Sequence record: NC_052655.1
Reading direction: 5' to 3' (one strand)
DNA length: 64,000 nt
DNA from: Escherichia phage alia
This document shows, in pieces, positions 4,490 through 34,594 of this stretch (the stretch's first letter is position 1; each line of letters starts with the position of its first letter). Made by a program: the position numbers and the translations under genes. A model generated the notes under the pieces. That model made no database searches, was not told the DNA's origin, and worked only from the letters and a program-made list of their open reading frames with translations.

Positions 4490-4526
4490 ATTATGTGTCC
4501 CACTAACAATGAGAGGAAACACGATT

Positions 4527-4877
4527 ATGGGTAACGCTGTACTGAAAACATATTTTAGCTACCATGAAATGATTGTGGATTTTGCTTCACTATCTCCTGC
4601 ATTAGATGCAGGTAAGACACTTAGTGTTGCTCCACCTATGTCATTCTATACTACAGATGGTAGAGTAGCCCTTGGTGGTAACTTTATTCACTTCTTAGTT
4701 CGTCTACGTGAAGAGACAGGAATTCAGGTTCATCCTTTCGGAAGTGAAGAACATCCTGGCTACTATCTCGTTAGCTATGAAGATTATGCACCTGTAGAAT
4801 TAAAAACGCAAGATAAAATTGAAGTTAAAGCAGTAGACACACCAGCAAAGAAACGTGCACAGCGCACTAAAAAGTAA
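4527..4877 (+). CDS. hypothetical head-tail joining (neck) protein
   Basis: ATG at 4527 preceded by GAGAGGA (the track start at 4509 has no SD). Basic C-terminus. Lies between capsid and tail sheath. Confidence 0.55.
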   Translation: MGNAVLKTYFSYHEMIVDFASLSPALDAGKTLSVAPPMSFYTTDGRVALGGNFIHFLVRLREETGIQVHPFGSEEHPGYYLVSYEDYAPVELKTQDKIEVKAVDTPAKKRAQRTKK

Positions 4878-4889
4878 TAGGAGGTTTAC

Positions 4890-5438
4890 ATGCTTATAGC
4901 TAGTGACCTTGTACCTATGATCCGCATATTGGTATTTAACCCTTCACAAGAAACACTGTCTGATGCAATGATTGAACAAATCATTCAAACGTGGATAGAT
5001 GTACTAGGGAATGATGATGCCAATAAATGTGCTGTACTGTGGAACAGTCTGATCTCTGTACTTGAATACTTGTGGAATACAGACGTACTAAATCATAATA
5101 CACAAACAGGTGGTGCTCTCTCTAGAAAAGAGAAAGTTGGCGAAGTACAGGTTGAAGTAACCTTTGGTACTGGACAGACAGAATACATTTCACCTTGGGA
5201 AAATATCTATAAAGGATATCTTGATGGTGATATGATGATACCTGGTTGTACTTCTGGTAGAGGTGTAACAAGTAAAGTATTAGTTGGTGGTGTTGATGCT
5301 CGTGAAATTGATCGTGTCAACAGCGATCCTAATTCAGTAAATGGTTTAGGTGGTGTTGGTAGTGTAGATCGACATACGAGAAATATCAAATATGCCAGAA
5401 ACTATGGCCCCATTGGTTACTACAGAAGGGATAAATAA
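4890..5438 (+). CDS. hypothetical head-tail joining (neck) protein
   Basis: AGGAGG SD 6 nt before the ATG; its stop overlaps the next start (TAATG). Confidence 0.6.
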   Translation: MLIASDLVPMIRILVFNPSQETLSDAMIEQIIQTWIDVLGNDDANKCAVLWNSLISVLEYLWNTDVLNHNTQTGGALSRKEKVGEVQVEVTFGTGQTEYISPWENIYKGYLDGDMMIPGCTSGRGVTSKVLVGGVDAREIDRVNSDPNSVNGLGGVGSVDRHTRNIKYARNYGPIGYYRRDK

Positions 5439-5926
5439 TGAAATGTGAGATCACACGTGGCGATGATATGTCGTTAGATGAATATTTTAGTAAAATGCTG
5501 GCTCTAGATAATATAGAAATAGATGCTGGTTTTCTTACTGCTGTTCGCCATCCAGAATCAGATCTCACTATCCCTGCAATTGCTGCCATACAACAGTTTG
5601 GTAATGAAACAAACAATACTCCTGCACGTCCGTTTTTAACGGACGGTGCAGTCCACGCCAGTAAAGAAATACCTAAGCATTTTGAAGAAGTGTTTAGAAA
5701 TTATTTACTTCGTGGAAGGGGTTTAGCTGCCTTTGAACCTATTGCAAAAGTTTCACGAGAATCTATTGCTAAAGCGATTGCTCTGCAACGTTATAGACCG
5801 CTATCTTCTGTGACTATTAAAATCCGTAGAGATAAAGGTAACTACTCTTCTCATATTCTTATTGATACTGGACACTTAATTAACAGTATTGAATCAGAAA
5901 TCAAGAAGGGTCGTTCTAAAAAATAA
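5438..5926 (+). CDS. hypothetical head-tail joining (neck) protein
   Basis: ATG overlaps the upstream stop; GAAGGG SD present. Confidence 0.6.
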   Translation: MKCEITRGDDMSLDEYFSKMLALDNIEIDAGFLTAVRHPESDLTIPAIAAIQQFGNETNNTPARPFLTDGAVHASKEIPKHFEEVFRNYLLRGRGLAAFEPIAKVSRESIAKAIALQRYRPLSSVTIKIRRDKGNYSSHILIDTGHLINSIESEIKKGRSKK

Positions 5927-5927
5927 C

Positions 5928-5956
5928 TTGCAATAAGTCTGTTTTTGATGTATACT
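5928..5956 (+). promoter_or_regulatory. sigma70-like promoter candidate (TTGCAA-N17-TATACT)
   Basis: TTGCAA 5928-5933, 17-nt spacer, TATACT 5951-5956, just upstream of the AGGAGA SD and the ATG at 5971. Confidence 0.3.
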
Positions 5957-5970
5957 AAAAAGGAGATACA

Positions 5971-6387
5971 ATGCTATTAGACCAATTTACTCTCCTTGAT
6001 CTAACAACGTATCAGGGTCGTAAAAGAACCTATGTTCAAGATCCTGATTCGCCAATTTCCAATATGGGTAATACAGTAGCATATGAAGACTTTACAATAG
6101 AGGCTGCAAGTTTGCAACCAATATCAGGTAGAACACTTCAAGCACTGCCAGAAGGATACAGATCTAAGGCACAATATAGCTTCTGGACAAAAACAGAAAT
6201 CAGAGGCATCCAGCAAGGATCAGATCAATTATCTGACCAAATACTAATAGATGGACAATGGTTTTCCATTTATTCTTTGAAAGACTGGACAAGAACATCT
6301 TTCTTAATACACACACATTGTGTTGCTATTCTAGATGACCAGAATAACACCTATTCATATTCTGAGGAGGGTGGTAATTTTGGCTAA
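5971..6387 (+). CDS. hypothetical neck / tail-completion protein
   Basis: 138 aa ORF with AGGAGA SD. Confidence 0.6.
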   Translation: MLLDQFTLLDLTTYQGRKRTYVQDPDSPISNMGNTVAYEDFTIEAASLQPISGRTLQALPEGYRSKAQYSFWTKTEIRGIQQGSDQLSDQILIDGQWFSIYSLKDWTRTSFLIHTHCVAILDDQNNTYSYSEEGGNFG

Positions 6388-7036
6388 TATCTATGAACAA
6401 ATTGAATTGTATGAAAATACGATATTATTAAATATCGCTAAGTTCTTACAAAGACTAGTGGGGCTTCCGGTTTATGTTATGGATAAACCATTTGTTAAAC
6501 CAACAACCCCATATCTGACATTACGTATTGTATCATCTGATGATTCAGGTGGTTGGTCACAAAAATATTCTTTTAGTGAAGATGCGTTTTCCTATCTAAT
6601 GGACAATAAGTATGAAATAGAACTTATGGCTTTTAGAGGAAGACCCATGACACTTTTAAGTTATGTTCTTGCGGCACTTCGTGGTGCAGATGAATTAAAA
6701 TACCAGTATCTTTATTCCAAAGGTATTAGCTTCTTATCTGCAACAAATGTTGCACAGGCTAACACTGTTCTGGATGGAGATAAAACTGAACAAAGAGCGA
6801 GAATATTTCTTACATTCAATACTACGATGGTTATTGAGGATTTAGTAACTACCGAAATTGAAGCAATTAATATGAACATTCATTCGTTCAGAGATGATTA
6901 CGATGATCCTACTCCAATAGATCTTCCTTTGGATAAGATTTACATTGTTGCTCACAGAAGTAAAACTTATTACTTTACGACGACTGATGATGGATCATTA
7001 ATTAAGTATATCCCAACGGATAATTCATTGGAATAA
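6380..7036 (+). CDS. hypothetical neck / tail-terminator-like protein
   Basis: TTG at 6380 lies 8 nt after GAGGAGGG and overlaps the upstream stop (TTGGCTAA). The track ATG at 6335 would overlap the previous gene by 53 nt and has no SD. Confidence 0.5.
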   Translation: MANIYEQIELYENTILLNIAKFLQRLVGLPVYVMDKPFVKPTTPYLTLRIVSSDDSGGWSQKYSFSEDAFSYLMDNKYEIELMAFRGRPMTLLSYVLAALRGADELKYQYLYSKGISFLSATNVAQANTVLDGDKTEQRARIFLTFNTTMVIEDLVTTEIEAINMNIHSFRDDYDDPTPIDLPLDKIYIVAHRSKTYYFTTTDDGSLIKYIPTDNSLE

Positions 7037-7056
7037 AGTTTCTAACAGGAGCATAA

Positions 7057-8463
7057 ATGGCAACTTTTCGTGATAAGGTAGTTTCCGTAACCCTTACCTA
7101 CGGTGCTACTTCAATTAGTGAAACACAGTTTGATATCCCTCTAATTCTTACAGGGCATAACGTTACTGGCAATCTTGTAGATTATTTCACTTCTTCAGAC
7201 GCACTTCTGCAAGCAGGTTTTGGCACTGCCGATCCAGCTTATAAAATGGCAAAACTACTATTTGACGGTCTGTTCGCACCAGAACAAGTTATCGTCGGTA
7301 AGCGTGATGTTTCTAAAACAACTCTAACTCCAGTAGTTGAAGATAGTGCAACTTACGTTATCACTATTAAAGCAAATTCAAAAAGCAAGGACTTCAAGTT
7401 TGTTGCCGATGATACTGCAACTGCTCAAGAGATTGTTGTTGGTTTAACAGAAATGATCAACGCAGACGTAGTGTATAAAGAATTTTTCACTGTGTCAAAC
7501 GATGGTAGTGTTATCACTGTAACCCCAGTTGCAGGTAAATACGCTACTATGGATAGTTCAGGATTCACAACTAAAGTAGAATATGCAAATGATATCTTAG
7601 AAGATATTGCTAAAATTGCAGACTATGAAAACAGTTGGTTCTGGTTACTATCTGATTCTCACGCAGAACAAGATATTATCGATCTAGCAGGTTATGTAGA
7701 AGAGCACGATAAAGTGTATTTCTTCTCTACCTCGCAACAAGGTGTTCTAACTAAAGAAGAAGATAACATTCTAGAACGCTTAGGTGATATGGGCTACAAT
7801 AACACTTGTATGGCATTGTGGATGACTAACGCTGATACAGTGTTCCCAGAGGCTGCTGTAGTTGGTTCTATCTGCTCTGCAACACCAGGTACTACTACCC
7901 TACATGGTAAAACCCTTGTTGGTATCGAGATTGAAAAACTTGGTCAGACAGCAGAAAACTTTATCGTTCAACAGAATGGTAATATTTACCGTAAAGAACA
8001 CGGTGTTCTGTTCTACCGTGATGGCTTCATGGTTAGTGGTTTCTATGTTGACTATGTGGTACACGCTCTGTGGTTCAAAGCTCGCGTAGAAGAATCTCTG
8101 TTCGCTCTATTCAAACAGCAATCTATGCTTGGTAGTGGTGTTAGAGCAACTTCTGCTGGTCTTGCTTTGATTCGTCAGGCTGTTACTGCAAACCCAATCC
8201 AAGTAGGTATTAACAATGGTTCTATTGCCAATGAGGTAGTAACTTCAGAGGAAACAGGACTTCTGGTAAGCCTTAAACCTACTATCTATATCCCATCTCG
8301 TGCAGATATGACTGATGCTCAAATCAATGCACGTTTGGTTGATGGTATGGTTATTGAATACGTATATGCTGGATTCTTCCACTATGTTAAAGTGCAGGTA
8401 AACGTTCTAACGAACCGCACTGCAAATAGCCAGAATTCCAATAGCTCTACTGTATCTTCATAA
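7057..8463 (+). CDS. tail sheath protein
   Basis: 468 aa ORF with CAGGAG SD, immediately upstream of a ~160 aa tube-like gene, the frameshifted chaperone pair and the tape measure gene (P2/Mu-like contractile-tail order). Confidence 0.7.
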   Translation: MATFRDKVVSVTLTYGATSISETQFDIPLILTGHNVTGNLVDYFTSSDALLQAGFGTADPAYKMAKLLFDGLFAPEQVIVGKRDVSKTTLTPVVEDSATYVITIKANSKSKDFKFVADDTATAQEIVVGLTEMINADVVYKEFFTVSNDGSVITVTPVAGKYATMDSSGFTTKVEYANDILEDIAKIADYENSWFWLLSDSHAEQDIIDLAGYVEEHDKVYFFSTSQQGVLTKEEDNILERLGDMGYNNTCMALWMTNADTVFPEAAVVGSICSATPGTTTLHGKTLVGIEIEKLGQTAENFIVQQNGNIYRKEHGVLFYRDGFMVSGFYVDYVVHALWFKARVEESLFALFKQQSMLGSGVRATSAGLALIRQAVTANPIQVGINNGSIANEVVTSEETGLLVSLKPTIYIPSRADMTDAQINARLVDGMVIEYVYAGFFHYVKVQVNVLTNRTANSQNSNSSTVSS

Positions 8464-8471
8464 TTAAAAGC

Positions 8472-8489
8472 AGCGGGGGAAACCCCGCT
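8472..8489 (+). terminator. hairpin after sheath gene (GAAA loop)
   Basis: AGCGGGG-GAAA-CCCCGCT perfect 7-bp stem; the downstream U-tract is weak (TATATG), so this may be a partial terminator. Confidence 0.45.
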
Positions 8490-8521
8490 TATATGAAAAG
8501 TAGTATAAAAGGAGATCCACT

Positions 8522-9001
8522 TTGGATAAAATGCTTACTGGCGTAATGGCCTATGATCCTTCTCAAGTAATCCTGTCTTTGGGTGGTTGGGAACCTTGGG
8601 GTTTCGCCGCAGATACCAAAATTGTTATTAACAAAACTAACGATATCATCAACCCATATTCAGGTACTGATGGTGACGTTTCCTTGGCGCTTAGTCGTAA
8701 CCGTTTAGGTACGCTAACAATGTCACTGCAACGTACTTCCCCAGCAAACGAAGTTCTTGCTGCTTATGCACAAACGATGTATTCTACTCGTCAAGTAGCA
8801 TTTAGCGTATATCTAGAAGACCCTCGCGGATATTATATCAGCACAATTGGTTGGATTCAAAGTCAACCGGACGACACTATTGGTGAAACTATTCAAGAAA
8901 ACCAATGGGTAATTGGTCTTAAAGATGCAAGCCTACTTCGTTCTACTGTAGGTGTTGGTGTTAACGCACTTAACTCTATTAGTGCTCTAACTATTCAGTA
9001 A
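8522..9001 (+). CDS. tail tube protein
   Basis: 159 aa ORF; TTG at 8522 is 7 nt after AAGGAGA. Sits between sheath and chaperone genes and is followed by a strong terminator. Confidence 0.7.
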   Translation: MDKMLTGVMAYDPSQVILSLGGWEPWGFAADTKIVINKTNDIINPYSGTDGDVSLALSRNRLGTLTMSLQRTSPANEVLAAYAQTMYSTRQVAFSVYLEDPRGYYISTIGWIQSQPDDTIGETIQENQWVIGLKDASLLRSTVGVGVNALNSISALTIQ

Positions 9002-9005
9002 CAAA

Positions 9006-9030
9006 AAGGGCAGAAATGCCCTTTATTTTT
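9006..9030 (+). terminator. intrinsic terminator after tube gene
   Basis: AAGGGCA-GAAA-TGCCCTT stem followed by TATTTTT. Confidence 0.7.
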
Positions 9031-9044
9031 AAAGAGAGGAAATA

Positions 9045-9527
9045 ATGGAACAACAAAAAGATAATACTATTGCAAAATTTGCTCGTCCAGAAGTAATGGT
9101 TGAAATTGATCTGGATGAAGGACGCAGTGTAAAATTTAGAGTTCTCAAGTGGAGTCCAACTAAAGTTTTTGAAAGGATTCCAGAACTAGGTAGTGTACTA
9201 GCTGTTCCTATGACAATGTATAATACTGCTCTTATGTCAGCAGACGAAGATCTAGAAGCTCGTATTGCTATGGCACTGATCCAATTATTCAGTGGTCTGG
9301 AAGAAAAAAACTTAGCCGCATTCTTACGTAAAATTTTAGATGAAGTTTACACAGAAGCAGGTCATAGTGTTTCCGATAATTTTGATGAATTGTTTTTTGC
9401 TCACCCAGAATTAGTTGTTGACTTAGCTGCAAAAGTTCTTGAGGTGAACTATGCCCCTTTTTTCAAACGAGGTTTCGGAAAACTGTTGACCCAATTTCAA
9501 GGAATAGAGACTCTAGCGAAGAGTTAA
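9045..9527 (+). CDS. tail assembly chaperone (G-like, short product)
   Basis: 160 aa ORF with AGAGAGGAAA SD, directly upstream of the tape measure gene; its 3' end overlaps a second open frame. Confidence 0.65.
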   Translation: MEQQKDNTIAKFARPEVMVEIDLDEGRSVKFRVLKWSPTKVFERIPELGSVLAVPMTMYNTALMSADEDLEARIAMALIQLFSGLEEKNLAAFLRKILDEVYTEAGHSVSDNFDELFFAHPELVVDLAAKVLEVNYAPFFKRGFGKLLTQFQGIETLAKS

Positions 9528-11916: not shown

Positions 11917-12627
11917 ATGGCAGCAAACACTCCAGAACAACACGTTCAAGCGGTTTATAAAGCGGAACAAGATATAAATTCTACAAAAAACACAAATAAC
12001 TCTGCCTCTACTGTGAAAGGGGAGAATGGTTTTTGTATTTTAGCAAGTATTTACAACAGTGCAAGTGATCAATATATTCAAAATTACCAAGCTATAGTTT
12101 TTGATGCTGTTCCAAATATAGGTGTAAAACGTCAAGCAGATGTTACTAGTTATCCTGTAGAAAATGGAGCTAATGTATCGGATCACGTTCAAGTTAAAAA
12201 TAATACTTTCTCTTTATCAGGAATGATTACAGAGACACCTGTAAGATTAATGCGAGATATGCTATATAGTGCTGGTGTTAACGGTACTCGTATCAGTCAA
12301 GCAATTACTTACTTAGATAAAATATTTGATGAAAGACAGCCTATCATTTTAATAACAGAACATAAGGTGTATGAGAATGTTATTTTGAAAGGCATATCAT
12401 ATGAATATCAAACAGAATATGCGATGCAATTTGACTTGGAATTTGAACAAGTAAGATTAGTTTCCTACGGGGAAACAAATGCTATTGCACTTAAGACAAA
12501 ACCAAATAAGAATACAGGTGTTAAAAACAAGAAAGGTACTAGTCCAGATGCTGATTTGGATGCAAGAACAGGGAAAGCAACTGGTACAGAACATCTTAGT
12601 GATCACAGTGCAGATGGTAAAAAATAA
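11917..12627 (+). CDS. hypothetical tail / baseplate protein
   Basis: 236 aa ORF with AAGAGG SD, first gene after the tape measure gene. Confidence 0.5.
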   Translation: MAANTPEQHVQAVYKAEQDINSTKNTNNSASTVKGENGFCILASIYNSASDQYIQNYQAIVFDAVPNIGVKRQADVTSYPVENGANVSDHVQVKNNTFSLSGMITETPVRLMRDMLYSAGVNGTRISQAITYLDKIFDERQPIILITEHKVYENVILKGISYEYQTEYAMQFDLEFEQVRLVSYGETNAIALKTKPNKNTGVKNKKGTSPDADLDARTGKATGTEHLSDHSADGKK

Positions 12628-12638
12628 GGAGAAAATTT

Positions 12639-13058
12639 TTGGCTATTTCATCTTATTCAAAGATCAGTAGAAGCACATCTAATAGTGGCTACAATGCAGT
12701 ATTTATTGATCGAAATTTAGGTTATTATTCTTGGTACTTACCTACAGAACAGTACCCAGACCAAACATATACGGTAACTCTCGATGGAGTAGATTATGAT
12801 ATACGTTTGAGATGGAATACAAGAGATCAAGCGTGGCAAATGCAATTAGGATTATCAGGAGACAATCCTAGTGTAACTTTTAAAGTAACCAATGGTTTAG
12901 ATCTTCTAGAACCATATAAGTATATAGAATCTGTGCCGGATGGTCAACTTTATTTGGTAGATACTGTTAAAATAAACGGTAGACCTAATTACTATGACAC
13001 AGGTGTAGATAAAAGATTTGCTTTGGTTTATATCGACGCTCTTCCATATCAAGCATGA
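12639..13058 (+). CDS. hypothetical tail / baseplate protein
   Basis: TTG start 6 nt after AAGGAGA; 139 aa. Confidence 0.5.
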   Translation: MAISSYSKISRSTSNSGYNAVFIDRNLGYYSWYLPTEQYPDQTYTVTLDGVDYDIRLRWNTRDQAWQMQLGLSGDNPSVTFKVTNGLDLLEPYKYIESVPDGQLYLVDTVKINGRPNYYDTGVDKRFALVYIDALPYQA

Positions 13059-13074
13059 TAAAAGGAGTTTTTAA

Positions 13075-14085
13075 ATGGCAGAAGAAAGAAATTACACAAA
13101 AGCTCCTGCACCAAATCTAAACAGAGCATACAAACTATTAATAGGTACAGCTACTAATACTAAAGAAAAAAGGACAAAAAATTCCTCTTTCAAATCTACA
13201 GTAGACTTAGATACTAAACTAGGGGATGCTAAAAAATCAACCCCTAATTTGTATGTTATTACGGAGCACCAAATATCTTTCACAATAAGAAAAGATAATA
13301 ATAAAGATCCTAATCAAGCCGAGATAACTATTTATAACCTAAGTGATGATACTGTTAATTATATTAACAAGGGTATTCGTAACAACTTGGCTGTTGCTTT
13401 GGCGGTAGGTTATGAAGGTCAAGAGTTAATTATGATCTTTAAGGGAACGGTGCAATGGGTAAGTGATACGTTTAACAATACTGACAGACGTACAGTGTTA
13501 CATTGTCTGGATGGTGGTATTAACATCTCCGAAGCAAGGACAAGCAGAAGTTATCCGAAAGGTACAAAAGTAAGTAAGGTTGTTAAAGACTTAGTTAAAG
13601 ATTTAGGTACTACAGAAGGTAATATTCACGTAGACACAGAGAAAACTTTATCATCTGCAACAGCTATGTGTGGTAATACATCACATTACTTAGAAAGTAT
13701 CTGTAAAGGTATTGATCACAATGTGTCGATACAAGATGGATCTGTTTACGTGACACCAAGATCACAAATGTCTAGTGCAAGATGCGCATATATTAGTGCA
13801 GAAACAGGTTTAATTGGTAGTCCAGAACCTTTCCACAATGATATTAAACCAACACAAAAAGTAACTAAATCTTCTAAGAAAGCTAAAAAGCCTACAGATG
13901 GTGTTAAGTTCAGATGTGAAATGAACGGTGCTATCTTACCAGAAAAAACTGTTTGGCTCAAGAGTCATAACTATGATGGTGGTTTTAAGGTGGTGTCTGT
14001 TGTTCATACAGGAGATAGGGAAGGTAAAGACTGGACAACTGAAGTAGAGTCTGTATCTGTATCTGCAATTATTAAGAAGGGCTAG
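13075..14085 (+). CDS. putative baseplate hub protein (P2 gpD-like by position)
   Basis: 336 aa ORF with AAGGAG SD, between the tape measure and central spike genes. Assignment is positional. Confidence 0.45.
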   Translation: MAEERNYTKAPAPNLNRAYKLLIGTATNTKEKRTKNSSFKSTVDLDTKLGDAKKSTPNLYVITEHQISFTIRKDNNKDPNQAEITIYNLSDDTVNYINKGIRNNLAVALAVGYEGQELIMIFKGTVQWVSDTFNNTDRRTVLHCLDGGINISEARTSRSYPKGTKVSKVVKDLVKDLGTTEGNIHVDTEKTLSSATAMCGNTSHYLESICKGIDHNVSIQDGSVYVTPRSQMSSARCAYISAETGLIGSPEPFHNDIKPTQKVTKSSKKAKKPTDGVKFRCEMNGAILPEKTVWLKSHNYDGGFKVVSVVHTGDREGKDWTTEVESVSVSAIIKKG

Positions 14086-14087
14086 AA

Positions 14088-14825
14088 ATGGATGCTTTAA
14101 ATTTTGTAACAGCAATCCGTGGATTAATCAACGAACAAGTTGCGGAAGTACATACATCTTTACCTGTAAGGGTAATTGGTGTAGATTATGGATCTAAGAC
14201 AGTAACTTTAGAATCTATCGTAAAAAATACCAGATCTACTGAAGATGAAATAGATTACCCAACATTCCACGATGTTCCTTTTATGGTAAATGGTGGTGGG
14301 ACAGGTAGAATTTCATTTCCAATTAAAGCAGGAGATATTGGTGTTGTTGTCTTTTCAGAAAGAGATCCGTCGAATGCTTTCCAGACAGATGGAGATACAG
14401 CCAGCAGCGGAACATTAATTCAACCTTGTGGTTTGTATCCAGCCTGTTTTATTCCTAAGATAGCAACAGCTACAGATTCTTCAGAAGAAGTAGATTCTGA
14501 AAAAGTTGTTATCTCAAATAATAAGCAAACTTACGCTTCGTTTGATCCTAACGGTAATATATCTGTGTACAACACACAAGGTATGAAAATAGATATGACA
14601 CCAAACAGTATTGTCCTTACCGATGCAGGAGGAGGAAAACTTACACTGCAAGGTGGGACTATGACATATAAAGGTGGTACTGTGAATTTAAACGGTTTAA
14701 CAATCACACCTGACGGTCGTATGACAGATAGTGGTGGCATTGGTTTACACACACATACACACCCTGTACGCGGTGTTGAAACTGGTGGTAGCACTGTTAC
14801 TTCCGACAAACCAAATGGAGGTTAA
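14088..14825 (+). CDS. baseplate central spike protein (gpV-like)
   Basis: 245 aa; Gly-rich beta-helix-like C-terminal repeats (GGGKLTLQGGTMTYKGGTVNLNG) ending in GLHTHTHPV, resembling the His-rich metal-binding apex motif I recall for P2 gpV / phi92 gp138-type spikes. Confidence 0.6.
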   Translation: MDALNFVTAIRGLINEQVAEVHTSLPVRVIGVDYGSKTVTLESIVKNTRSTEDEIDYPTFHDVPFMVNGGGTGRISFPIKAGDIGVVVFSERDPSNAFQTDGDTASSGTLIQPCGLYPACFIPKIATATDSSEEVDSEKVVISNNKQTYASFDPNGNISVYNTQGMKIDMTPNSIVLTDAGGGKLTLQGGTMTYKGGTVNLNGLTITPDGRMTDSGGIGLHTHTHPVRGVETGGSTVTSDKPNGG

Positions 14826-18814: not shown

Positions 18815-20974
18815 ATGAAACAGGCTATTTTTACTGTAACTCGAAATACGAGAGTAAATGCCAGTTCATTCAGCTATAAGACCGTCGATGGAACGGCGGT
18901 CGCTGGTAGAGATTATGTAGCTAAACAGGGAACAGTAACGTTCCCTTCTGATGCAGATTCTGCTACTGTAGTAGTTGATGTATATGAACGTCCGGCAAAC
19001 TCTTTAGATCTTTATTTTACTCTTGAGATTACTAGCATAAGTCAAAATAACATGATGATCAATGAAGAAATTCGTTGTGTTATTACGACTAATCAATCGA
19101 ATACAACCCCGCTAACTTGGCCTGTTGTGAAGTCTAGAATGTTTGATCCTAAGTTTTGGACAATAGATTCTCAATCAACAGAAAGTTGTTCTATTATCTC
19201 TAATGGTGATTCTTTCACGGCAAGAATGGTTAATAGGACAGTGGCTGGTCTTGCTGGGATTATTTGGTCAACTTACGATAAATATGATCACAAAGGATTA
19301 GGCTACCAAGAACATTCTGATTTAAGTAAAGAAAAACTTTGGTTTAAAATGGAACTTAGTCAAGGTGTTCCTGGATTAAAAGAAGAAAAATTAATGCCAT
19401 CCTTAACAGTGACACTGAAGGATGAAACAGTTCATTATGTATCTCTAAACTTTTATGCAGAAGAAGTTTCAGAGGACGGTAAAACAGCAATAATCAAATT
19501 AGATTTCTCAAATTTAAAATCTGGGCCAGAAAATGATATTGTTGTTGACACTACACAGATAGATAACATGTTCTTCTCTTTGATCTCCGCAAGGTATCAA
19601 GAAATTGAAGATGTTATACCTGTAGACAATATGGATCTTTCCTTTAAGTTTACCATACTAGAGCCTGATACTGGTTACAGTATGATGAATATGGGTAATT
19701 TAAATGTTCCGGCGCACACCATAAGAATGTGTACATCTTATGATGATATGTATAACCTAACCCCAGAGCGAGTTATTTCTAACACCTACAGATTAGGTTA
19801 TAGAGATATGATTAACCATTATAATGGTATGTCACACTATTATCAATTTAGTTGGGATGCTGGATCTAATAAATGGGCTTTGAATAGAACAGAATATTTA
19901 AACCCAGCAACAGAAGCCTGGTTTGATAATTTCCACGCTAATGCAAAAGCTATGGGCTACACAGTAATGAACTCCTTAAGTTTTGAACTTATGAGTACAG
20001 TGTGTCCTGTAGAATGGGTACAACATACTTGGAATGATGATCTGGCTGCTACAGGTTATGAGCCACCAAGTTATGTTTTATCTCCTTCAATTGATGAAGG
20101 GATGAATTATTTACAAGGTGTGATAAATAAGATAGCTTCTATATCCGCTGCCAATGATCTTCCGGTTATTATTCAGGTTGGTGAACCGTGGTGGTGGTAT
20201 AACACAGCTACCAATCTACCGTGTATTTATGATTATACAACCAAAGTTGCATTTAATAATGAAACTGGATTATATGCACAAGATGTTGGTACAGTTAAAA
20301 ATTATAAAACTGGTACACCATATGATGAATATTATGCATTCCTATCTAAAACATTAGGACTGCGTGTTGCTAAATTTGCAACAGATACCAGATTAGCATA
20401 CCCTGGAGCGAAAGTTACATTGTTACCATTTGTACCATCCATCTTAGGTAATGGTATGATGGAGTTTGTTAACTTCCCTAAAGATTATTATATTCCAGAA
20501 AACTTTGACTTTTATTGTTCAGAATGTTATGACTGGTTGTTGGAAGGTAAGATGGAAAGATCTTTCGACGCTATCAAAATACCTAATGAGCAACTAGGTT
20601 TTAGTTACGATAAGATACATTATCTTGCAGGGTTTGTTCCAGATGCAACTCTAGCACCATTATATGGCTTTGATCCTGAATCAAACTATAGAACATATTT
20701 GTGGAAAATGATTATAGGCAATATTGTATTGAATGACCAGAAGTTTGTTGGTTTATATCAATACATATGGGCTTACCCACAAATAATGCATGATTCAATA
20801 ACTGTTCTTAATTCAAAATCCCAAGTGTTTTATATGGGTAATGTGCCTTTGAATTGCTACTTGCAAGATATCACTCTTAAACAGGTAAATGTTGAGATTG
20901 CCACTATAACTGGAATTACATTAGCCACTAAATCTGGAGAAGATTTAGTAACAACACAAAAATTTTATATATAG
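18815..20974 (+). CDS. large tail protein with N-terminal Calx-beta-like domain
   Basis: 719 aa with AAGGAA SD. N-terminal SFSYKTVDGTAVAGRDYVAKQGTVTFPSDADSATVVVDVYERP matches the Calx-beta pattern (DGTA.AG.DY...G...F). Confidence 0.55.
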   Translation: MKQAIFTVTRNTRVNASSFSYKTVDGTAVAGRDYVAKQGTVTFPSDADSATVVVDVYERPANSLDLYFTLEITSISQNNMMINEEIRCVITTNQSNTTPLTWPVVKSRMFDPKFWTIDSQSTESCSIISNGDSFTARMVNRTVAGLAGIIWSTYDKYDHKGLGYQEHSDLSKEKLWFKMELSQGVPGLKEEKLMPSLTVTLKDETVHYVSLNFYAEEVSEDGKTAIIKLDFSNLKSGPENDIVVDTTQIDNMFFSLISARYQEIEDVIPVDNMDLSFKFTILEPDTGYSMMNMGNLNVPAHTIRMCTSYDDMYNLTPERVISNTYRLGYRDMINHYNGMSHYYQFSWDAGSNKWALNRTEYLNPATEAWFDNFHANAKAMGYTVMNSLSFELMSTVCPVEWVQHTWNDDLAATGYEPPSYVLSPSIDEGMNYLQGVINKIASISAANDLPVIIQVGEPWWWYNTATNLPCIYDYTTKVAFNNETGLYAQDVGTVKNYKTGTPYDEYYAFLSKTLGLRVAKFATDTRLAYPGAKVTLLPFVPSILGNGMMEFVNFPKDYYIPENFDFYCSECYDWLLEGKMERSFDAIKIPNEQLGFSYDKIHYLAGFVPDATLAPLYGFDPESNYRTYLWKMIIGNIVLNDQKFVGLYQYIWAYPQIMHDSITVLNSKSQVFYMGNVPLNCYLQDITLKQVNVEIATITGITLATKSGEDLVTTQKFYI

Positions 20975-26949: not shown

Positions 26950-27291
26950 ATGGAGCTAACAGAAGTATGGGATATCGCTAAAGAGGCGATTATCCCTCTT
27001 ATTGGCGTAATCTGGGTGGTCTTCAAACAGAAGATAGATGATATGGCAAGTGATTTGGACAAAATGGAAGACAAGTACCGCGAACTAGAAAAGAAGTTGG
27101 TGTTTGTTGAATCCACTTATGCTACCAAAGCAGAACTTGCTCAAATGCTTAACCAGATCAACTCTACATTAATGGCAAATAATACTGCCTTAGAACAGAA
27201 GATTGAAAAAATAATGGATTTAAAAAATGCTCCTGTTCAATTAATGTTAGAGGAGATTACAAAGCGCACACAAAGTAAGGACAAAAATTAA
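26950..27291 (+). CDS. hypothetical protein with N-terminal TM helix and coiled coil
   Basis: 113 aa; hydrophobic AIIPLIGVIWVVF followed by a charged coiled-coil-like region. Function unknown. Confidence 0.45.
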   Translation: MELTEVWDIAKEAIIPLIGVIWVVFKQKIDDMASDLDKMEDKYRELEKKLVFVESTYATKAELAQMLNQINSTLMANNTALEQKIEKIMDLKNAPVQLMLEEITKRTQSKDKN

Positions 27292-29705
27292 TGGCGAATT
27301 TTCCAACATATCCTGCTACGACACTAGAACAAGGTGTTGATCTGGTTATATTCTCGTCTAACCAGATGCATGATGTTATTAATGGGGATGCTACAGCAAC
27401 TGTAGAAACCGAAACAGGTTTAATACCTACACTGCGTAAAGCACTTGTTGATAACTTCTTCTTTAAGAGTCCTGTTGCTTGGTCAGCAGGATCAACTGAA
27501 ACTGTATTTAACCAGTTACGTTATTTTGAAAACGGTATCTTGAGTGGGTACTATTATGCCCCATCTGCCACTACTGCGAACCCTGTACCTATGCAGGGCA
27601 CACCTGTAGGAGACAGTAACTGGACTCTGTACGCTCTTAAAACTGAACAGTTAGCTTCAGATGTGTATCCTTGGTATTTTAAAGGTGCTACAGGATATGA
27701 AACAGAAATCAGTCCTCCTTATATCTTTGATAATGCTATTGTCACCATTAACGGTGTAATTCAGATTCAAGGTGAAGCATTTACTATCAAAGATAGTAAA
27801 ATTATTCTGGCAGAACCATTAGGTTTAGATCCGTCTACTGGTCTACCTAACAAATTGTTTGCTTTTATTGGTAAAACAACAGCCTCTACTTCTTACGTAG
27901 AGAAAAACCTTTTGTCATCTACCACTGGTGCAGCAATGGTTGGTCTTCCATCTGGAGGCAACCTGTTACAAGCTCAATACTTTGTAACGCCTGAGCAGTT
28001 TGGTGCAATTGGTGATGGAGTTACCGATGATACTCAAGCAATTTTAAAAACCATTACTTTCGCTAACACGAATAACATTCAAGTACGTGCAGATAAGAAT
28101 TATAGATTCACAAGCTCAATTGCTATGTCTGGTATTCGTTGGTATGGTGGTACATTCACTGGTAACGGTGGAACAATGATTTCTACTGTGTCCTGTTGGA
28201 TGGAAAACGTTCGCTTTGAAAAATGTTATGTTAAGATGTTAGGTGGTGATTGCCGATTCTATCGTAATATCTTCTCCAACGCAACATCTACAGCAGCATT
28301 CTTAATGCAAGCAATGACAAGTGAAGGTACGTTGGACTTCAGTTACAACGAAATGTATGGTTGTAAATATGCGATCCTGCAACAAGGTACTGGAGAAGTA
28401 ATGACCTACGGGCGTTACTCTAACAACTATATTCACGATATCAAAGGTGATGCTATTGAACTTAACGTAGTTCAAAAACACTACACTGAAGGTTTGATTA
28501 TAGAGAATAACCACATTGCTAACGTAGATGCTTCTGGACAAGGTGCAAACTGGGGTATTGGTATTGGTGTAGCAGGTAGTGGCCCATATGGTGTTGATGT
28601 TCCTGATTCACAATATGTACGTAATTTCAGTATCGTTGGGAATAGGGTTTACAATTGCCGTCAATGTCTACACGTTGAAATGGGTAAAAACTTCACAATA
28701 CGTGATAATGAAGTTTATCCTAACACAGCAGTTTCAACAGGTACAGGTTTAACTACTTGTGGTGTTGCATTATACGGATGCCAAGATTTTGAAGTTGATG
28801 GTTTAACTGGTTATCTGCTCAATGATCCGTCTGTTTCAACACGTATGGTCTTTATTGACTGGGGTGTTAACAGTGGAAGATATGCGGGGCCACCAATTAA
28901 CTTTACAATTAAGAATTTGGATATTCCAGAATCTTCAATTGAGATTGCAACATCTGGATCAGATGCCTGGGAAAACTCTACAATTGTTAGTAATATCAAT
29001 TGTAATGTTTTTAAATGGCGTGGGCTACCATCTAGCTCTACCTTTAATAATATTCGTTGCCGTAGTATTGACTTTATTGGTCAACACGGAAGCGGAGAAG
29101 GAAGTGGTGGCGGTTTCTATACTCGCAGCCAATTCACGTATATGAAGTGGGTAGGATGTACAGCACTTAGCGGAGATGAAACAACAGTTTCTTTTGCTAA
29201 AATCTACACTGATCGTTGCGATCAGGTTGGAAATAACTTTGGTGTTCCAACTGCTGTTGATGGTACAGGTCATCGTGGGCCAGTTTTAACTACTATTTCT
29301 GAACAATATTTTACAGCTTATGATGAATTCCCAGGTGGGCGTGAATTCCCTACTGGAACAGTTATTCATTGTGCAAGCGGTAAAAAACATGTTGTTACAG
29401 TAGGTGGTGCTTTCTTTAGTGCCAACGAGAAAATAAAAGCAACTGTTACAGGTCAAACCTATCTACAGTCTAATGCTTTAAACTGGGCTAGTAATGGCTA
29501 CGCTAAAGCAGCAGGTACTAAGATTGTTATTCCAGGTGCAGGAGCAAATGGTGGCGATCTTGTGACAACTATAGCACGTGCTACGTATGTGACAAATAGT
29601 TTGTACACAATAGATATTGCAGATCCAATTGTAACACCTACAGCAGAGAATACACAAATTAAAGCTCTGAACCCTGTTACTTTTGTTACTGTCAATAATG
29701 CTTAA
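27291..29705 (+). CDS. tailspike protein, pectate-lyase-like beta-helix (second depolymerase candidate)
   Basis: 804 aa; motif FGAIGDGVTDDTQAILKTI; shares an identical 24-nt stretch with the first tailspike gene. Confidence 0.7.
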   Translation: MANFPTYPATTLEQGVDLVIFSSNQMHDVINGDATATVETETGLIPTLRKALVDNFFFKSPVAWSAGSTETVFNQLRYFENGILSGYYYAPSATTANPVPMQGTPVGDSNWTLYALKTEQLASDVYPWYFKGATGYETEISPPYIFDNAIVTINGVIQIQGEAFTIKDSKIILAEPLGLDPSTGLPNKLFAFIGKTTASTSYVEKNLLSSTTGAAMVGLPSGGNLLQAQYFVTPEQFGAIGDGVTDDTQAILKTITFANTNNIQVRADKNYRFTSSIAMSGIRWYGGTFTGNGGTMISTVSCWMENVRFEKCYVKMLGGDCRFYRNIFSNATSTAAFLMQAMTSEGTLDFSYNEMYGCKYAILQQGTGEVMTYGRYSNNYIHDIKGDAIELNVVQKHYTEGLIIENNHIANVDASGQGANWGIGIGVAGSGPYGVDVPDSQYVRNFSIVGNRVYNCRQCLHVEMGKNFTIRDNEVYPNTAVSTGTGLTTCGVALYGCQDFEVDGLTGYLLNDPSVSTRMVFIDWGVNSGRYAGPPINFTIKNLDIPESSIEIATSGSDAWENSTIVSNINCNVFKWRGLPSSSTFNNIRCRSIDFIGQHGSGEGSGGGFYTRSQFTYMKWVGCTALSGDETTVSFAKIYTDRCDQVGNNFGVPTAVDGTGHRGPVLTTISEQYFTAYDEFPGGREFPTGTVIHCASGKKHVVTVGGAFFSANEKIKATVTGQTYLQSNALNWASNGYAKAAGTKIVIPGAGANGGDLVTTIARATYVTNSLYTIDIADPIVTPTAENTQIKALNPVTFVTVNNA

Positions 29706-29745: not shown

Positions 29746-31707
29746 GTGATTTTAACACGTCCAAATAGTGCCATTGCAGACATGGTAGAGTCTCGCTATA
29801 GAAAGCGTAGAAGTTTTGCAAGTGGTTTTACCTTAAGAGATGCTCGTGAAGCATTGCTCTTTGAAGCTGACGGTAACTACTATCAGTGGAAAGGTTCTCT
29901 ACCTAAAGTTGTACCTGCTAACTCTACTCCTACATCTACTGGAGGGATTTCAGATACAGCTTGGAAAAATGTGGGTAATGCAGATGACATTGCTCAAATA
30001 GAATCAGAATTAGATGCTATTGAAGCTGAAATTGAAGATCTTAGAGAATCCATACCAGAAGCTGGTAAATCAGCTTACCAGATTGCCGTAGACAATGGTT
30101 TCCAAGGTACTGAGACACAGTGGTTGGCTTCTTTAAAAGGTGATCCAGGTGCTCCATTAAAGCTACTAGGGACGCTATCTAATACCAACCAATTACCTAC
30201 AACTGGAAACAATGCAGGGGATGCATGGATTGTAGGCGAGAATATGTATGCTTGGGATGGTACGGCTTGGAGAAAAGTAAACTCACAGGGGCCAGAAGGT
30301 AAATCTGCTTATGAAGTATGGCTTGCAGCAGGAAATGAAGGTACAGAACTAGATTATCTTGCTTCAATTAAAGGTGATAAAGGGGAGCCTGGCCCAGAGG
30401 GGCCACAAGGTGTGCCAGGTAATAATGCTAATGGTTTTGATTACCAAGGCGCAGCTAATTCCGTTTCAGATCTTCCTTCTGCATCTCATGGAAACACATC
30501 TCAAGCATGGAGTGTTGGTACATATCTATACGTGTCAAACGGTGTAGAATGGATCAATATGGGCGCTATAGTGGGGCCAAAAGGAGATAAAGGCGACAAA
30601 GGAGATAAGGGTAACACTGGTGATTCAGCTTATCAAGTCTGGTTAAATGCTGGTAACGTTGGTACTATTGACGAATATATTGCCTCTCTGAAAGGAGAAA
30701 AAGGTGATAAAGGAGACAAGGGTGATCAAGGTGAGCAGGGTATACAAGGCTTGACGGGGCCAACTGGCGCAGGGTTGACCATTATTGATATTCTGACTAA
30801 CACTTCTGAACTACCACAAACTGGAGAAGATGGTGATGGTTATCTAATCAATAATGAACTTTGGGTCTGGTTGCAAGGAGCCACAGAGTGGACAAATGTT
30901 GGTCGTTTAGCTGGTACTCCAATCACTGCAAAAGGACACGTTGCGTCTGCAAGTGCGCTTCCTCCTACAGCCAATTACGGTGATGCTTATCTGACGGAAG
31001 ATACAGGTCATCTTTACATTTACACCTATAATGAACAAACTCAAACTGCTGAATATGTAGATATGGGTAGTTTGAAAGGTGATAAGGGTGAAAAAGGTGA
31101 CGCTGGTACTAACGGTACAGACGGTGCAACTTGGATTGTTAAAACAACAGATCCAATCTCTAGTGATGGTAAACAAGGTGATTATGCCTTTAATATCTCC
31201 ACTGGTGAGGTGTTCTTAAAAACATCTGCAACTGTCTGGACTTCTCAAGGTACACTACCTAGCATCACAGATGCACCTAGTGACGGTAAGATCTATGCTC
31301 GTAAAGATGGAACATGGGAAGAACTCACTAGTTCTGTAGATGGTCAAGATATAGTTCCAACAAAAGTAACAACTAATTTTATAGAGGTTACAGCATACAC
31401 TAACAACTCTGTTACAGGGGACTGGACACCTCCAGGAACACATAACATGAATGTGTTGAATCTTACTGGTAACTCTACTATAAAAGCATGGCCTGGTGTC
31501 GAAGATAGCACAAAACCTAAACCATTCTCTGCAATAGTTTATCTTATCCAAGATGCCACTGGGGGTCATACTGTTACTTTAGATCCATCTTACAAAGTAA
31601 TTGGTTCTAGTGATATTAATACAGATCCTAACGGAGTAACAATACTACAACTAACATATTGTGGTGTTGGTGATTACGTGGATGCTATTGTTGCTAAACG
31701 CACATAA
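29746..31707 (+). CDS. collagen-like repeat tail fibre protein
   Basis: GTG start 7 nt after AAGGAG. Several Gly-X-Y tracts (GDKGEPGPEGPQGVPG; GPKGDKGDKGDKGNTGDS; GEKGDKGDKGDQGEQGIQGLTGPTGAG; GDKGEKGDAGTNGTDGA) and three copies of a ~30-aa module. Confidence 0.7.
   Translation: MILTRPNSAIADMVESRYRKRRSFASGFTLRDAREALLFEADGNYYQWKGSLPKVVPANSTPTSTGGISDTAWKNVGNADDIAQIESELDAIEAEIEDLRESIPEAGKSAYQIAVDNGFQGTETQWLASLKGDPGAPLKLLGTLSNTNQLPTTGNNAGDAWIVGENMYAWDGTAWRKVNSQGPEGKSAYEVWLAAGNEGTELDYLASIKGDKGEPGPEGPQGVPGNNANGFDYQGAANSVSDLPSASHGNTSQAWSVGTYLYVSNGVEWINMGAIVGPKGDKGDKGDKGNTGDSAYQVWLNAGNVGTIDEYIASLKGEKGDKGDKGDQGEQGIQGLTGPTGAGLTIIDILTNTSELPQTGEDGDGYLINNELWVWLQGATEWTNVGRLAGTPITAKGHVASASALPPTANYGDAYLTEDTGHLYIYTYNEQTQTAEYVDMGSLKGDKGEKGDAGTNGTDGATWIVKTTDPISSDGKQGDYAFNISTGEVFLKTSATVWTSQGTLPSITDAPSDGKIYARKDGTWEELTSSVDGQDIVPTKVTTNFIEVTAYTNNSVTGDWTPPGTHNMNVLNLTGNSTIKAWPGVEDSTKPKPFSAIVYLIQDATGGHTVTLDPSYKVIGSSDINTDPNGVTILQLTYCGVGDYVDAIVAKRT
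30049..30750 (+). repeat. internal tandem module repeats with collagen-like Gly-X-Y tracts
   Basis: Three related modules (SAYQIAVDNGFQGTETQWLASLKGDPG / SAYEVWLAAGNEGTELDYLASIKGDKGEPG / SAYQVWLNAGNVGTIDEYIASLKGEKGDKG), each followed by G-X-Y repeats. Confidence 0.6.
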
Positions 31708-31710
31708 TCA

Positions 31711-31735
31711 AAGCCCCTTCGGGGGCTTATTATTT
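31711..31735 (+). terminator. intrinsic terminator (UUCG loop)
   Basis: AAGCCCC-TTCG-GGGGCTT stem followed by ATTATTT. Confidence 0.6.
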
Positions 31736-31746
31736 AAGGAGATTAA

Positions 31747-34566
31747 ATGTATCCTATTCCTTTATTTATGTCAACAACATCAGCTTCAGTAGTAACAGCT
31801 ACATCTATAACTACTTCCTCTATTGGTATTGCAATAGTTGGTGGTAAAAAACAACTGACATACACAGTTACACCGGAAGATGGTGCATTATTTGATATAG
31901 CTTTTTCATCTTCAGATAATACCAAAATGGTTATAGATAATAGTGGTATGATGGAGTTTGTTGCCGAAGGTGGTTTTGATGCAATAATGACAGCTAAAAA
32001 TAATTTAGGTGCTGTCTTAACTGATCAATCTGGTGGTTATGCTTCAGAATTAAGTGTGTACACTGAAAGTCTATCGGCTATGGATGTAGGCACTACTCAA
32101 CAGTTGGTTGCTACAATCAGTCCAGAAGGTGCTAAAGACCTTCCAGATATGGTAATTACATACACCACAACAGATCCAGAAGTAGCTACTGTAAGCCCTA
32201 CAGGGTTAATAACTGCTCTTAAAGATGGCGGTTGCCGTATAGGTTGTACTGCAACGTATCAAGGAACAGTTGTGGCCTCTGATAGTTCTTATTTAGGTGT
32301 TAATGCTATTCCTGTTATTTCTAATGTAACAGCCGTGGCAAACAGCTATGGAGACGTTCGTGTTGCTTGGGATGTAGCTGATCCGCTAGACGGTGATACT
32401 TATACTGTAGAAGTATTAGATTTAAGTGATAATAGTGTCCAGTGGACTACAACAACCACGAATACTTACGCCTATTTTGATATCTCTGACTCTATTCCTC
32501 TTTATGGGTTTGCTCCAACATACCTTAAAATTAATGTTAAGAGCACCAAAGCAGCAGCCGTTATCTTTAATAACTCAATAGCTACAGATGATTCATTCAT
32601 TAAAGAAGTTATTGTCTTTGCTGGACAAGATAACGTAAATGCACACTTTACAGAACTATCTGGTGCAAATAAAGCAGCAATGGGTAGCACAACAGCCCGT
32701 AATGCATATGCTACGCAACGTGGTTTAGCAAATGCTGAAGTTCTTCCGTTAAATACAGCTTCTGGATCATCAGCAGCAGATAAATATGCTGACGATAAAG
32801 CTGGAACAGGTACACCAGATAACTACTGGTATGATCTGGATAACACAGCAGATGGGCCATGCTTAACTAACTTTATCACTAAAGTCACACCTTATGCAAG
32901 TAAGGTTAAAGCGATTATTTGGGGACAAGGTGAAAATGATGCTGTATCAGCATCTTCTACTGTTGCAGGTAGGTACAGTAACACTACACGTTACCATGAT
33001 GCTACGATAGCCATCTTTGATAAGATGCGTACAATAGTTCCTGCTTCTCAAGCAAAAATTGTTTGGCAGATCCTAGGACGTTCTTATTTATATGGTGTAG
33101 AAGTTAATGGTGTGGATTGGCAGAAGTACAGAAATGTACAAAGAACCATCTCTACAGCACGTGATGATGTTATCATTGGTTCTTGGGTAGATGGTGCTGA
33201 ACGTTACAGTGGTTATGTTTATGAAGAAGGTATTGATGGTCGTATCCATTATGTTTCTTCTGTATACCAAACAGCAGCTACAAAACTTGCTAAATCAGCA
33301 GCAGACGGTACAGACTTAACATCAACGTCACCTGTTTGGGTTGATATGGCTGTTCCAACTGGAGCAACAGCTACTTCCCAACCTAATCAAGATACAATTT
33401 TAGCATGGGATGCTCAAGGCTATAGTAAACACTACTTCCGTAATATTAACGTCTTAACTGCATCTGTATTAACTGAACAAACGCTTAATACGAACAGTTA
33501 TACGTTTACCTATGCAGATCAAGTAGAACAATATGGTTTTGCAGCAGGAACTACTATATTTGATGTTGCATATTATGACGAAGCAAATGATGTGTTATCT
33601 CCTTTAGTACGTTTTAATGTTAACGTTACAGCAGGAACCGTAGAAGATAAACCTGTCGTGATGGACTATGATTTGACGCAAGAAACTCTTCCATCAGATG
33701 TTAAGGTTAATGGTGGGAACTCTTTTGCTCGTGCTTCTGGAGATAAACTTGTAGCCACTAACACCTTGGTTGCTCCGTTGGAGTATGTTGGTACTACCCC
33801 TGTAGGTAGACGTGTAACAGCTAACACAGCTACACAAATTTTTGTCAACAACGCCTTAACAAGCGCAAGCCCGTGGATAAAGACCAAATTAACTGTTGCA
33901 GCTTCATCTGATAACTCTCCGGCTGGAACTACTGCTAATGTATTCAAATTAACTCCGACTACAACCTCTGGTAGTCATATCTTAACTGCAACATATACTA
34001 ACGCGTACAACATATCTGCCGGACGTAACTGGTCTGCCTCTGTTTTCTTGAAAGCGAACGGGATTACTAAGGCCAAACTAAGATTAAAAGCAGGAACTGA
34101 AGTTAATGAGGGTACTTTTGATTTAGCAGCAGGTACATTCACAGGAAGTGAAGCTAATATTATATCTATGGGCAACGGTTGGTATCGTGCTATTCTGCAT
34201 AAAACAGGGATAGCCAAACAGTCCTCCATAAGTTTTGAAATAATTGCCTTGGATGCAACTGGTGCGGAGATTTTCGCTGGAGATGGTACTAGTAACCTTG
34301 CAGTTTGGTTGCCACAGCTTGAAGGTGCTTCTACAGGAGAAACATCAAAAGCTGGATCGCCTTATGTCTGCATATATCCTGGAAATTTAGGAGGAGTATC
34401 CTTCACTATACCAAGGAACGGACATACTGGTGTGGATGTTTACTATTCCAACGGAGACGTTGTTCGTGACGTATTCTCTGGTACGGCATCTACTTGGACA
34501 ATAAACTACTCCAGCTTGTACGATTGGGGATCAGTCTTTATTACAGGTTTGAAATATTACGACTAA
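31747..34566 (+). CDS. tail fibre protein with Ig-like domains and SGNH/SASA-like esterase domain
   Basis: 939 aa; N-terminal bacterial Ig-like (BIG2-type) segments; motifs IVFAGQDNVNAHF and AIIWGQGENDA resemble the GQSN and W.QGE.. motifs of sialate O-acetylesterase-like SGNH hydrolases. Confidence 0.55.
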   Translation: MYPIPLFMSTTSASVVTATSITTSSIGIAIVGGKKQLTYTVTPEDGALFDIAFSSSDNTKMVIDNSGMMEFVAEGGFDAIMTAKNNLGAVLTDQSGGYASELSVYTESLSAMDVGTTQQLVATISPEGAKDLPDMVITYTTTDPEVATVSPTGLITALKDGGCRIGCTATYQGTVVASDSSYLGVNAIPVISNVTAVANSYGDVRVAWDVADPLDGDTYTVEVLDLSDNSVQWTTTTTNTYAYFDISDSIPLYGFAPTYLKINVKSTKAAAVIFNNSIATDDSFIKEVIVFAGQDNVNAHFTELSGANKAAMGSTTARNAYATQRGLANAEVLPLNTASGSSAADKYADDKAGTGTPDNYWYDLDNTADGPCLTNFITKVTPYASKVKAIIWGQGENDAVSASSTVAGRYSNTTRYHDATIAIFDKMRTIVPASQAKIVWQILGRSYLYGVEVNGVDWQKYRNVQRTISTARDDVIIGSWVDGAERYSGYVYEEGIDGRIHYVSSVYQTAATKLAKSAADGTDLTSTSPVWVDMAVPTGATATSQPNQDTILAWDAQGYSKHYFRNINVLTASVLTEQTLNTNSYTFTYADQVEQYGFAAGTTIFDVAYYDEANDVLSPLVRFNVNVTAGTVEDKPVVMDYDLTQETLPSDVKVNGGNSFARASGDKLVATNTLVAPLEYVGTTPVGRRVTANTATQIFVNNALTSASPWIKTKLTVAASSDNSPAGTTANVFKLTPTTTSGSHILTATYTNAYNISAGRNWSASVFLKANGITKAKLRLKAGTEVNEGTFDLAAGTFTGSEANIISMGNGWYRAILHKTGIAKQSSISFEIIALDATGAEIFAGDGTSNLAVWLPQLEGASTGETSKAGSPYVCIYPGNLGGVSFTIPRNGHTGVDVYYSNGDVVRDVFSGTASTWTINYSSLYDWGSVFITGLKYYD

Positions 34567-34567: not shown

Positions 34568-34594
34568 AAAAAAGGAGCCATTAGGCTCCTTTTC
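34568..34594. terminator. bidirectional intrinsic terminator at strand switch
   Basis: A-tract (34568-34573), GGAGCC-ATTA-GGCTCC stem, T-tract (34590-34594), between convergent gene ends at 34566 (+) and 34602 (-). Confidence 0.75.

Follow-up and report, generated by a model that had tools for sequence, protein, structure and literature searches.

What does the last gene of the plus-strand tail-fibre cluster of Escherichia phage alia encode: a receptor-modifying esterase, or an esterase-like domain put to another use? The window analysed is a 64000-nucleotide (nt) stretch of record NC_052655.1, a Justusliebigvirus (Stephanstirmvirinae, phi92-like Escherichia coli myophage), and the gene (31747–34566, plus strand) is a real open reading frame of 939 codons with an ATG start. 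A first-pass annotation, made from the letters alone, had described its product as a tail fibre with N-terminal Ig-like repeats and an SGNH/SASA-type esterase domain, a candidate receptor-modifying enzyme, citing the motifs GQDN and WGQGEND. The repeats (two Big_2 domains) and both motifs (residues 293–296 and 392–398) are present. The domain is conserved, yet an aspartate stands where its catalytic serine should be.

The esterase idea is already in public records, whose labels disagree. The PaulScherrer copy is a 'lateral tail fiber protein with intimin and glycosidase domains', KKE7M has a 'non-contractile tail sheath', ALITA and vB-Eco-KMB37 each have a 'tail carbohydrate esterase', and others have a 'tail protein'.

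A central domain of the SASA/DUF303 branch

GQDN and WGQGEND are blocks I and III of a domain of ~245 residues. An exhaustive phmmer search with residues 265–560 (1.84 billion representatives) returned 79 homologues at E<=1e-3 and 36 at E<=1e-10, so the motifs are not chance occurrences; most of these homologues sit inside long multidomain proteins. This search was used in place of a first one that had found two proteins for the domain and six for the C-terminal part. The profile search envisaged in the first-pass annotation gave a divided answer: the direct match to Pfam SASA (PF03629) covers residues 374–433 only and is sub-threshold (14.2 bits, E 0.034; cut-off 24.8 bits), whereas eight of ten more distant homologues exceed the gathering score (25–49 bits). 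A 21-sequence family profile (A1) matches two crystal structures of the SASA family (1zmb, 2apj; E ~1e-3), and the N4 sheath protein gp65 (9lc0, 9yf4, 9yf5, 9yft) in two tandem copies at E 2.5e-87. Compared by hhalign with RcapMu56, a canonical DUF303 tail protein (Pfam SASA 43 bits), the same profile scores 92% probability with blocks II, III and V aligned. At the level of sequence, SASA/DUF303 membership holds by transitive homology.

The SGNH hydrolase fold is a three-layer α/β/α, flavodoxin-like arrangement with a five-strand parallel sheet. An AlphaFold2 model of residues 265–560 (pLDDT 91.3, pTM 0.86) finds its best Foldseek match among Protein Data Bank (PDB) entries in N4 gp65 (TM 0.77), followed by the CE20 acetylesterase XAC1771 (7kmm) and 1zmb, with dozens of GDSL/SGNH esterases at probability 1.0; matches in BFVD are phage SGNH tail and tailspike proteins. 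The predicted structure thus has the SGNH fold that the first-pass annotation expected. Profiles and model together support the central domain's genuine membership in the sialate-O-acetylesterase/DUF303 branch of this fold.

An aspartate at the nucleophile position

We aligned the domain with 59 homologous copies, the block I site being occupied in 55. The block I consensus is GQSN, with serine in 47 of the 55; the 939-residue protein has Asp295 at the nucleophile position, a difference that falls exactly on the catalytic serine and on which the first-pass annotation was silent. In the model, predicted strand β1 (residues 287–293) and helix α1 (from residue 295) put this residue at the canonical SGNH nucleophile position. 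Block V has its aspartate at H-4 (DGRIH) and not at the canonical H-3; the closest serine-bearing relatives likewise lack an aspartate at H-3. With no candidate serine at the nucleophile site, the canonical catalytic triad is absent on sequence, and at that level the proposed Ser-His-Asp esterase, which by its own terms required such a triad, fails.

GQDN is found in seven of seven Justusliebigvirus copies examined, and the decayed phi92 copy keeps it too. A 47%-identical homologue from Avunavirus (P0004; Av-05-type phages) reads GGDN, again with aspartate at the nucleophile site. Among other clusters at a similar distance, block I reads GQAN, GQMN, GHEN or GDAN, and in four clusters His is gone as well as Ser. 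In N4 gp65, Ser, block III and His are all missing from domain 2 (721–1007); domain 1 (436–602) is a half-domain that keeps Ser and block III and stops before block V, so that it has no His. From these losses we conclude that the phage-tail SASA sub-family has repeatedly given up catalysis.

A maintained domain in an accessory gene

The SASA domain is under purifying selection. Over residues 280–525, the ratio of non-synonymous to synonymous substitution rates (dN/dS; Nei–Gojobori, against four relatives) is 0.08–0.12; the domain is thus being kept. The whole gene is accessory, being dispensable in some relatives. In phi92 (NC_023693, 8411–10073; gene_152 and gene_153) it carries a 218-nt deletion, at least one further frameshift and a stop at about residue 628; in ALITA (12001–14820) it has a nonsense codon at residue 720 (S720*), and that record annotates two coding sequences. 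These lesions reflect either genuine decay of an accessory gene or errors of sequencing. The positional orthologue phAPEC8 gp086 keeps the N-terminal peptide, the Big_2 pair (63% identity, its residues 411–587) and the C-terminal module (63%), and the SASA cassette is absent; it also has an unrelated N-terminal region of 410 residues, RCC1-repeat-like as judged by eye.

Many Justusliebigvirus genomes (arall, Serratia phage KKP_3264) encode a natural 628-residue form without the C-terminal module. Against these short-form phages, dS rises from 0.03–0.13 over residues 1–525 to ~1.0 over residues 526–628, a jump that marks a recombination junction immediately downstream of the SASA domain. The 3′ end exists in three or more allelic forms: none, type A and type B (62% identity).

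Kinship with the N4 sheath and with SGNH esterases

The closest solved structure to the domain is N4 gp65, by way of its SASA-like domains (436–602 and 721–1007). Both proteins carry a [SASA-like + FN3] cassette in a tail protein of a phage dependent on the NGR glycan, and in both the catalytic residues are incomplete. They differ in that gp65 is a 1382-residue non-contractile sheath subunit and receptor-binding protein, forms a heterodimer with gp64 and has lost more catalytic residues, whereas the 939-residue protein has lost only Ser, has Big_2 domains and is without NCTSP_N or a TIM-barrel part.

The N4 genes have an arrangement of their own. In NC_008720, gp65 (3720–7868) residues 374–416 match positions 4–46 of Pfam TIM-barrel_NCTSP, and residues 436–602 match positions 13–176 of the SASA-like hidden Markov model (with the GESQ serine and WGQGDQD); gp64 (7901–9154) continues both, residues 18–78 matching SASA-like positions 186–248, including the block V His (QIHF), and residues 109–407 matching TIM-barrel positions 60–347. 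On these matches the sheath heterodimer resembles a pair of split domains, one nested in the other, so that only the gp65/gp64 interface could bring together a complete Ser+His site. In the window, the N-terminal modules of the N4 sheath (Calx-beta, NCTSP_N and a contiguous TIM-barrel_NCTSP) occur in a 719-residue protein. The 653-residue fibre encoded upstream of the SASA protein combines collagen repeats with the Tail_spike_N domain of CBA120 TSP1 and N4 gp66. Counting the SASA protein, three separate genes here each hold a tail module of N4. A SASA-like domain also lies in the 1391-residue 'tail sheath and receptor binding protein' of Achromobacter phage phiAxp-2 (NC_029106, 1029–5204), a siphophage (Casjensviridae), whose gene for this protein immediately follows that for the tape measure. 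The module is therefore one that moves among the tails of podo-, myo- and siphophages.

With the SASA/DUF303 carbohydrate acetylesterases (1zmb, 2apj, XAC1771 and RcapMu56) the domain has in common the fold and the signatures of blocks II, III and V. In those proteins block I is GQSN, Ser being the nucleophile, and block V is usually D-x-x-H, where the 939-residue protein has GQDN and D-x-x-x-H. CE2 esterases offer a different comparison, their active site doubling as a non-catalytic carbohydrate-binding site. Members of that family (2w9x, 2wao) are among the structural matches and use the SGNH cleft for polysaccharide binding; they keep a Ser-His dyad and stay esterases, and their relation to the present protein is by fold only. 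Virion-borne SGNH esterase tailspikes are established in N4-like phages (G7C gp63.1 and others; review PMC10743462). Such tailspikes of N4-like and other phages (G7C gp63.1; Pectobacterium phages Possum and PP99; Moo19/B2) likewise have an SGNH-fold domain in tail proteins engaged in host glycan recognition, but they are trimeric, have an intact Ser triad and are remote structural relatives here (Foldseek E ~1e-5, TM ~0.4). G7C gp63.1, for which O-antigen deacetylation has been demonstrated, is not among the best 50 PDB matches of the SASA model.

A modular protein, probably a tail appendage

Beyond the SASA domain, the protein is a series of small modules (Table 1). The N-terminal peptide, MYPIPLF..., is probably the virion-attachment end, judged from its conservation in relatives with different downstream domains. 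PHROG Ig-domain matches cover residues 10–204, and the linker at residues 192–279 opens an FN3-SASA-FN3 cassette that phAPEC8 gp086 lacks. A domain scan of the 939-residue protein found no coiled-coil, collagen or beta-helix signatures. From domain types that are usually monomeric, the protein looks like a beads-on-a-string appendage rather than a trimeric fibre. The term 'tail fibre' is plausible for gene position and homology, and fits the architecture less well. The gene lies in the tail cluster, its product matches PHROG tail families (E 0 and 1e-226; PHROG 32204 spans residues 1–628), and its domains are common to N4 gp65, Sf11 gp17 and the Pa193 and E217 baseplate proteins; we infer both a virion location and a monomeric state.

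BLASTP and profile searches link residues 629–939 to gp17, the distal tail protein of Sf11 (9occ; PMC12724387), in which a C-terminal 'appendage of unknown function' is the related part. Further homologues are Rcc01080, the head-spike fibre of RcGTA (6tb9), and two baseplate proteins, Pa193 gp46 and E217 gp45. The model of this part, built from a reduced alignment, is poor (mean pLDDT 57.5, with only residues ~710–865 reliable), so the assignment is mainly by sequence homology. In that model the remoter structural neighbours of the jelly-roll core are carbohydrate-binding modules (CBMs) and lectins. RcapMu has a canonical SASA (DUF303) tail protein and a homologue of the C-terminal module one gene apart; both modules therefore travel together in unrelated phages.

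Glycan binding, catalysis or scaffold

We favour, with moderate confidence, an accessory tail or baseplate appendage, probably monomeric, in which a conserved, serine-less, esterase-derived SASA domain provides a glycan-binding site. The protein runs from a short conserved N-terminal peptide, the presumed anchor, through two Big_2 Ig domains and the FN3-SASA-FN3 cassette to an optional, CBM-like jelly-roll module. The SASA domain would work without canonical serine-esterase action, its preserved cleft binding an O-acetylated surface glycan with no cleavage, or with very slow turnover, and SASA domain and C-terminal module together would give reversible, avidity-type adsorption. Candidate ligands may include the NGR glycan, O-acetylated enterobacterial common antigen (ECA) and colanic acid. 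Justusliebigvirus Bas60–62 and N4 both target or depend on NGR (PMC11990801, PMC8669472), and both phage groups carry the SASA domain family, a circumstantial link. Vequintavirinae are also wecB/nfrB-dependent and most are without the domain, only four Av-05-type records matching at ~47% identity; it cannot therefore be a universal NGR receptor-binding protein.

Several points weigh against a glycan-binding role. The identity of the ligand is a guess. Block I was placed against the solved SASA enzymes by family alignment and secondary-structure position, the pairwise alignment not being significant. The accessible proteomic and structural literature makes no mention of phi92 gp152/153 or its orthologues, and we found no relevant virion proteomics for Justusliebigvirus. 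Finally, His501 and blocks II and III are intact and only Ser is lost, which could instead mean that chemistry persists with aspartate or water as the nucleophile. The protein would then be an active virion-borne O-acetylesterase with a non-canonical centre, in line with the GenBank label: Asp295 would attack through an acyl-anhydride, or an Asp295/His501 pair would activate water, with the oxyanion hole kept, and NGR, ECA, colanic acid or O-antigen would be deacetylated for processive movement, as with G7C gp63.1. SGNH fold, SASA membership, purifying selection and an Asp kept between lineages only 47% identical all speak for such an enzyme, as do the precedent of the N4-like esterase tailspikes and the cluster with Glu at the nucleophile site (GHEN), although His is lost there. 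We nevertheless think it unlikely. Exchanging Ser for Asp at a serine-hydrolase nucleophile normally abolishes ester hydrolysis; no SGNH or SASA enzyme is known to us in which Asp is the nucleophile, and a literature search found no serine-less SGNH domains or pseudoenzymes in phages. Relatives of similar distance with Ala or Met (GQAN, GQMN) point to a relaxed need for a nucleophile in the sub-family, and N4 gp65 uses the same domain non-catalytically.

The N4 precedent can be pushed further, to a SASA-like domain that is a ligand-free spacer or scaffold, an enzyme fossil retained because its fold is stable, as in the packed N4 sheath, with any host recognition left to the Ig domains and the C-terminal jelly-roll module. 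The gp65 domains of this family are structural parts of the sheath, the protein is decayed or dispensable in phi92 and truncated in ALITA, and the cassette is absent from the phAPEC8 orthologue. For a pure spacer, however, one would not expect His501, QGE.D and the GSS loop to stay unchanged across 47% sequence divergence, nor a dN/dS of ~0.1; the 628-residue forms, moreover, keep SASA as their largest distal domain, suggesting that it is their functional head. We regard a mere scaffold as improbable. Bolder, and quite unlikely in our estimate, is that a new Asp/His (or Asp-activated water) acetyl-glycan esterase or transferase has been selected in NGR-dependent coliphages, or that an esterase-derived 'substrate-trap' lectin holds, without cutting, an O-acetylated conserved E. 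coli glycan; either would offer a way into the undefined chemistry of the NGR receptor.

Gene, neighbours and flanking signals

The gene is 99% identical to its counterparts in ALITA, inny, Paula and PaulScherrer (bas60_0037). Its orthologues are bas60_0037, the ALITA 'tail carbohydrate esterase' and the decayed phi92 gene_152/153. An equation with phi92 gp151 was considered and rejected, since gp151 corresponds to the 653-residue fibre upstream and the present frame to gene_152 plus gene_153. That fibre gene is preceded by a colanidase gene; beyond the hairpin at the 3′ end of the 939-codon frame the genes are on the minus strand and convergent. Between the fibre gene and the 939-codon frame lies a GC-rich hairpin, AAGCCCCTTCGGGGGCTT, with a good T-tract absent. 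As a partial terminator or an element of RNA stability, it may keep the last gene at lower expression.

No paralogue of any of the three parts of the protein occurs elsewhere in the window, and single-protein locus searches matched only near-identical IMG/VR contigs. Two GenBank records of 146 kb, MG065639 and MG065656 ('Campylobacter phage' A150 and C3), hold a 94.6%-identical copy of the domain and match Justusliebigvirus genomes in size; these records look mislabelled or contaminated.

Table 1 Features of the 939-codon gene and its surroundings, in window coordinates
Feature	Position	Strand	Remarks
Gene for 719-residue protein	18815–20974	+	
Colanidase gene	27291–29705	+	
Gene for 653-residue fibre	29746–31707	+	phi92 gp151 type
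GC-rich hairpin	31711–31728	+	
Ribosome-binding site AAGGAG	31736–31741	+	read from the sequence itself; 5 nt upstream of the ATG
Conserved N-terminal peptide (MYPIPLF...)	31747–31791	+	common to phAPEC8 gp086, Avunavirus homologue P0004 and P0082, including cases in which the next domain differs
Two Big_2 Ig-like domains (~residues 16–191)	31792–32319	+	Pfam Big_2 E 1.7e-13, two stretches
FN3/Ig-like linker (~residues 192–279)	32320–32583	+	fold assigned only from sequence pattern and cassette boundaries
SASA-type SGNH-fold domain (~residues 280–525)	32584–33321	+	homology, profiles, model, Foldseek
Block I, G-Q-D-N (residues 293–296)	32623–32634	+	Asp295 is GAT, 32629–32631
Block II, G340-S-S342 (oxyanion-hole loop)	32764–32772	+	same as in the nearest Ser-bearing relatives; aligns with RcapMu56
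Block III, W392-G-Q-G-E-N-D398	32920–32940	+	intact; RcapMu56 counterpart WWQGEAD (hhalign); partial Pfam SASA match
Block V, D-G-R-I-H	33235–33249	+	His501 lines up with the canonical His, which 54 of 60 copies have
Second FN3-like domain (residues 526–628)	33322–33630	+	short natural protein form ends here; recombination breakpoint near start
Optional C-terminal module (jelly-roll core ~residues 694–876)	33631–34563	+	NCBIfam GTA_spike_fiber E 1.1e-18 (residues 629–939)
Intrinsic-terminator hairpin	34570–34593	+	strong, 10-bp stem; directly after the 939-codon frame

Implications

Phi92-like phages have among the broadest host ranges of coliphages, and which of their tail proteins does what is unresolved (PMC8594841, PMC13450770). 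A 2026 cryo-electron microscopy study of phi92 could not assign the density of fibre II and makes no mention of the 939-residue protein (PMC13450770). Virion SGNH esterases, the annotated protein family and the solved structure of its closest relative are already known; new are the Ser-to-Asp active site under purifying selection and the modular relation to N4 gp65. The GenBank label 'tail carbohydrate esterase', which is now spreading, rests on a domain without its nucleophile, and recognizing this guards against over-annotation. The protein becomes a candidate non-cleaving glycan binder, with a domain family in common with N4 gp65, in two NGR-dependent phage groups. Were the domain merely a fossil, the result would be an ordinary one; if it does bind or process NGR, it would be of use in probing a receptor of undefined structure.

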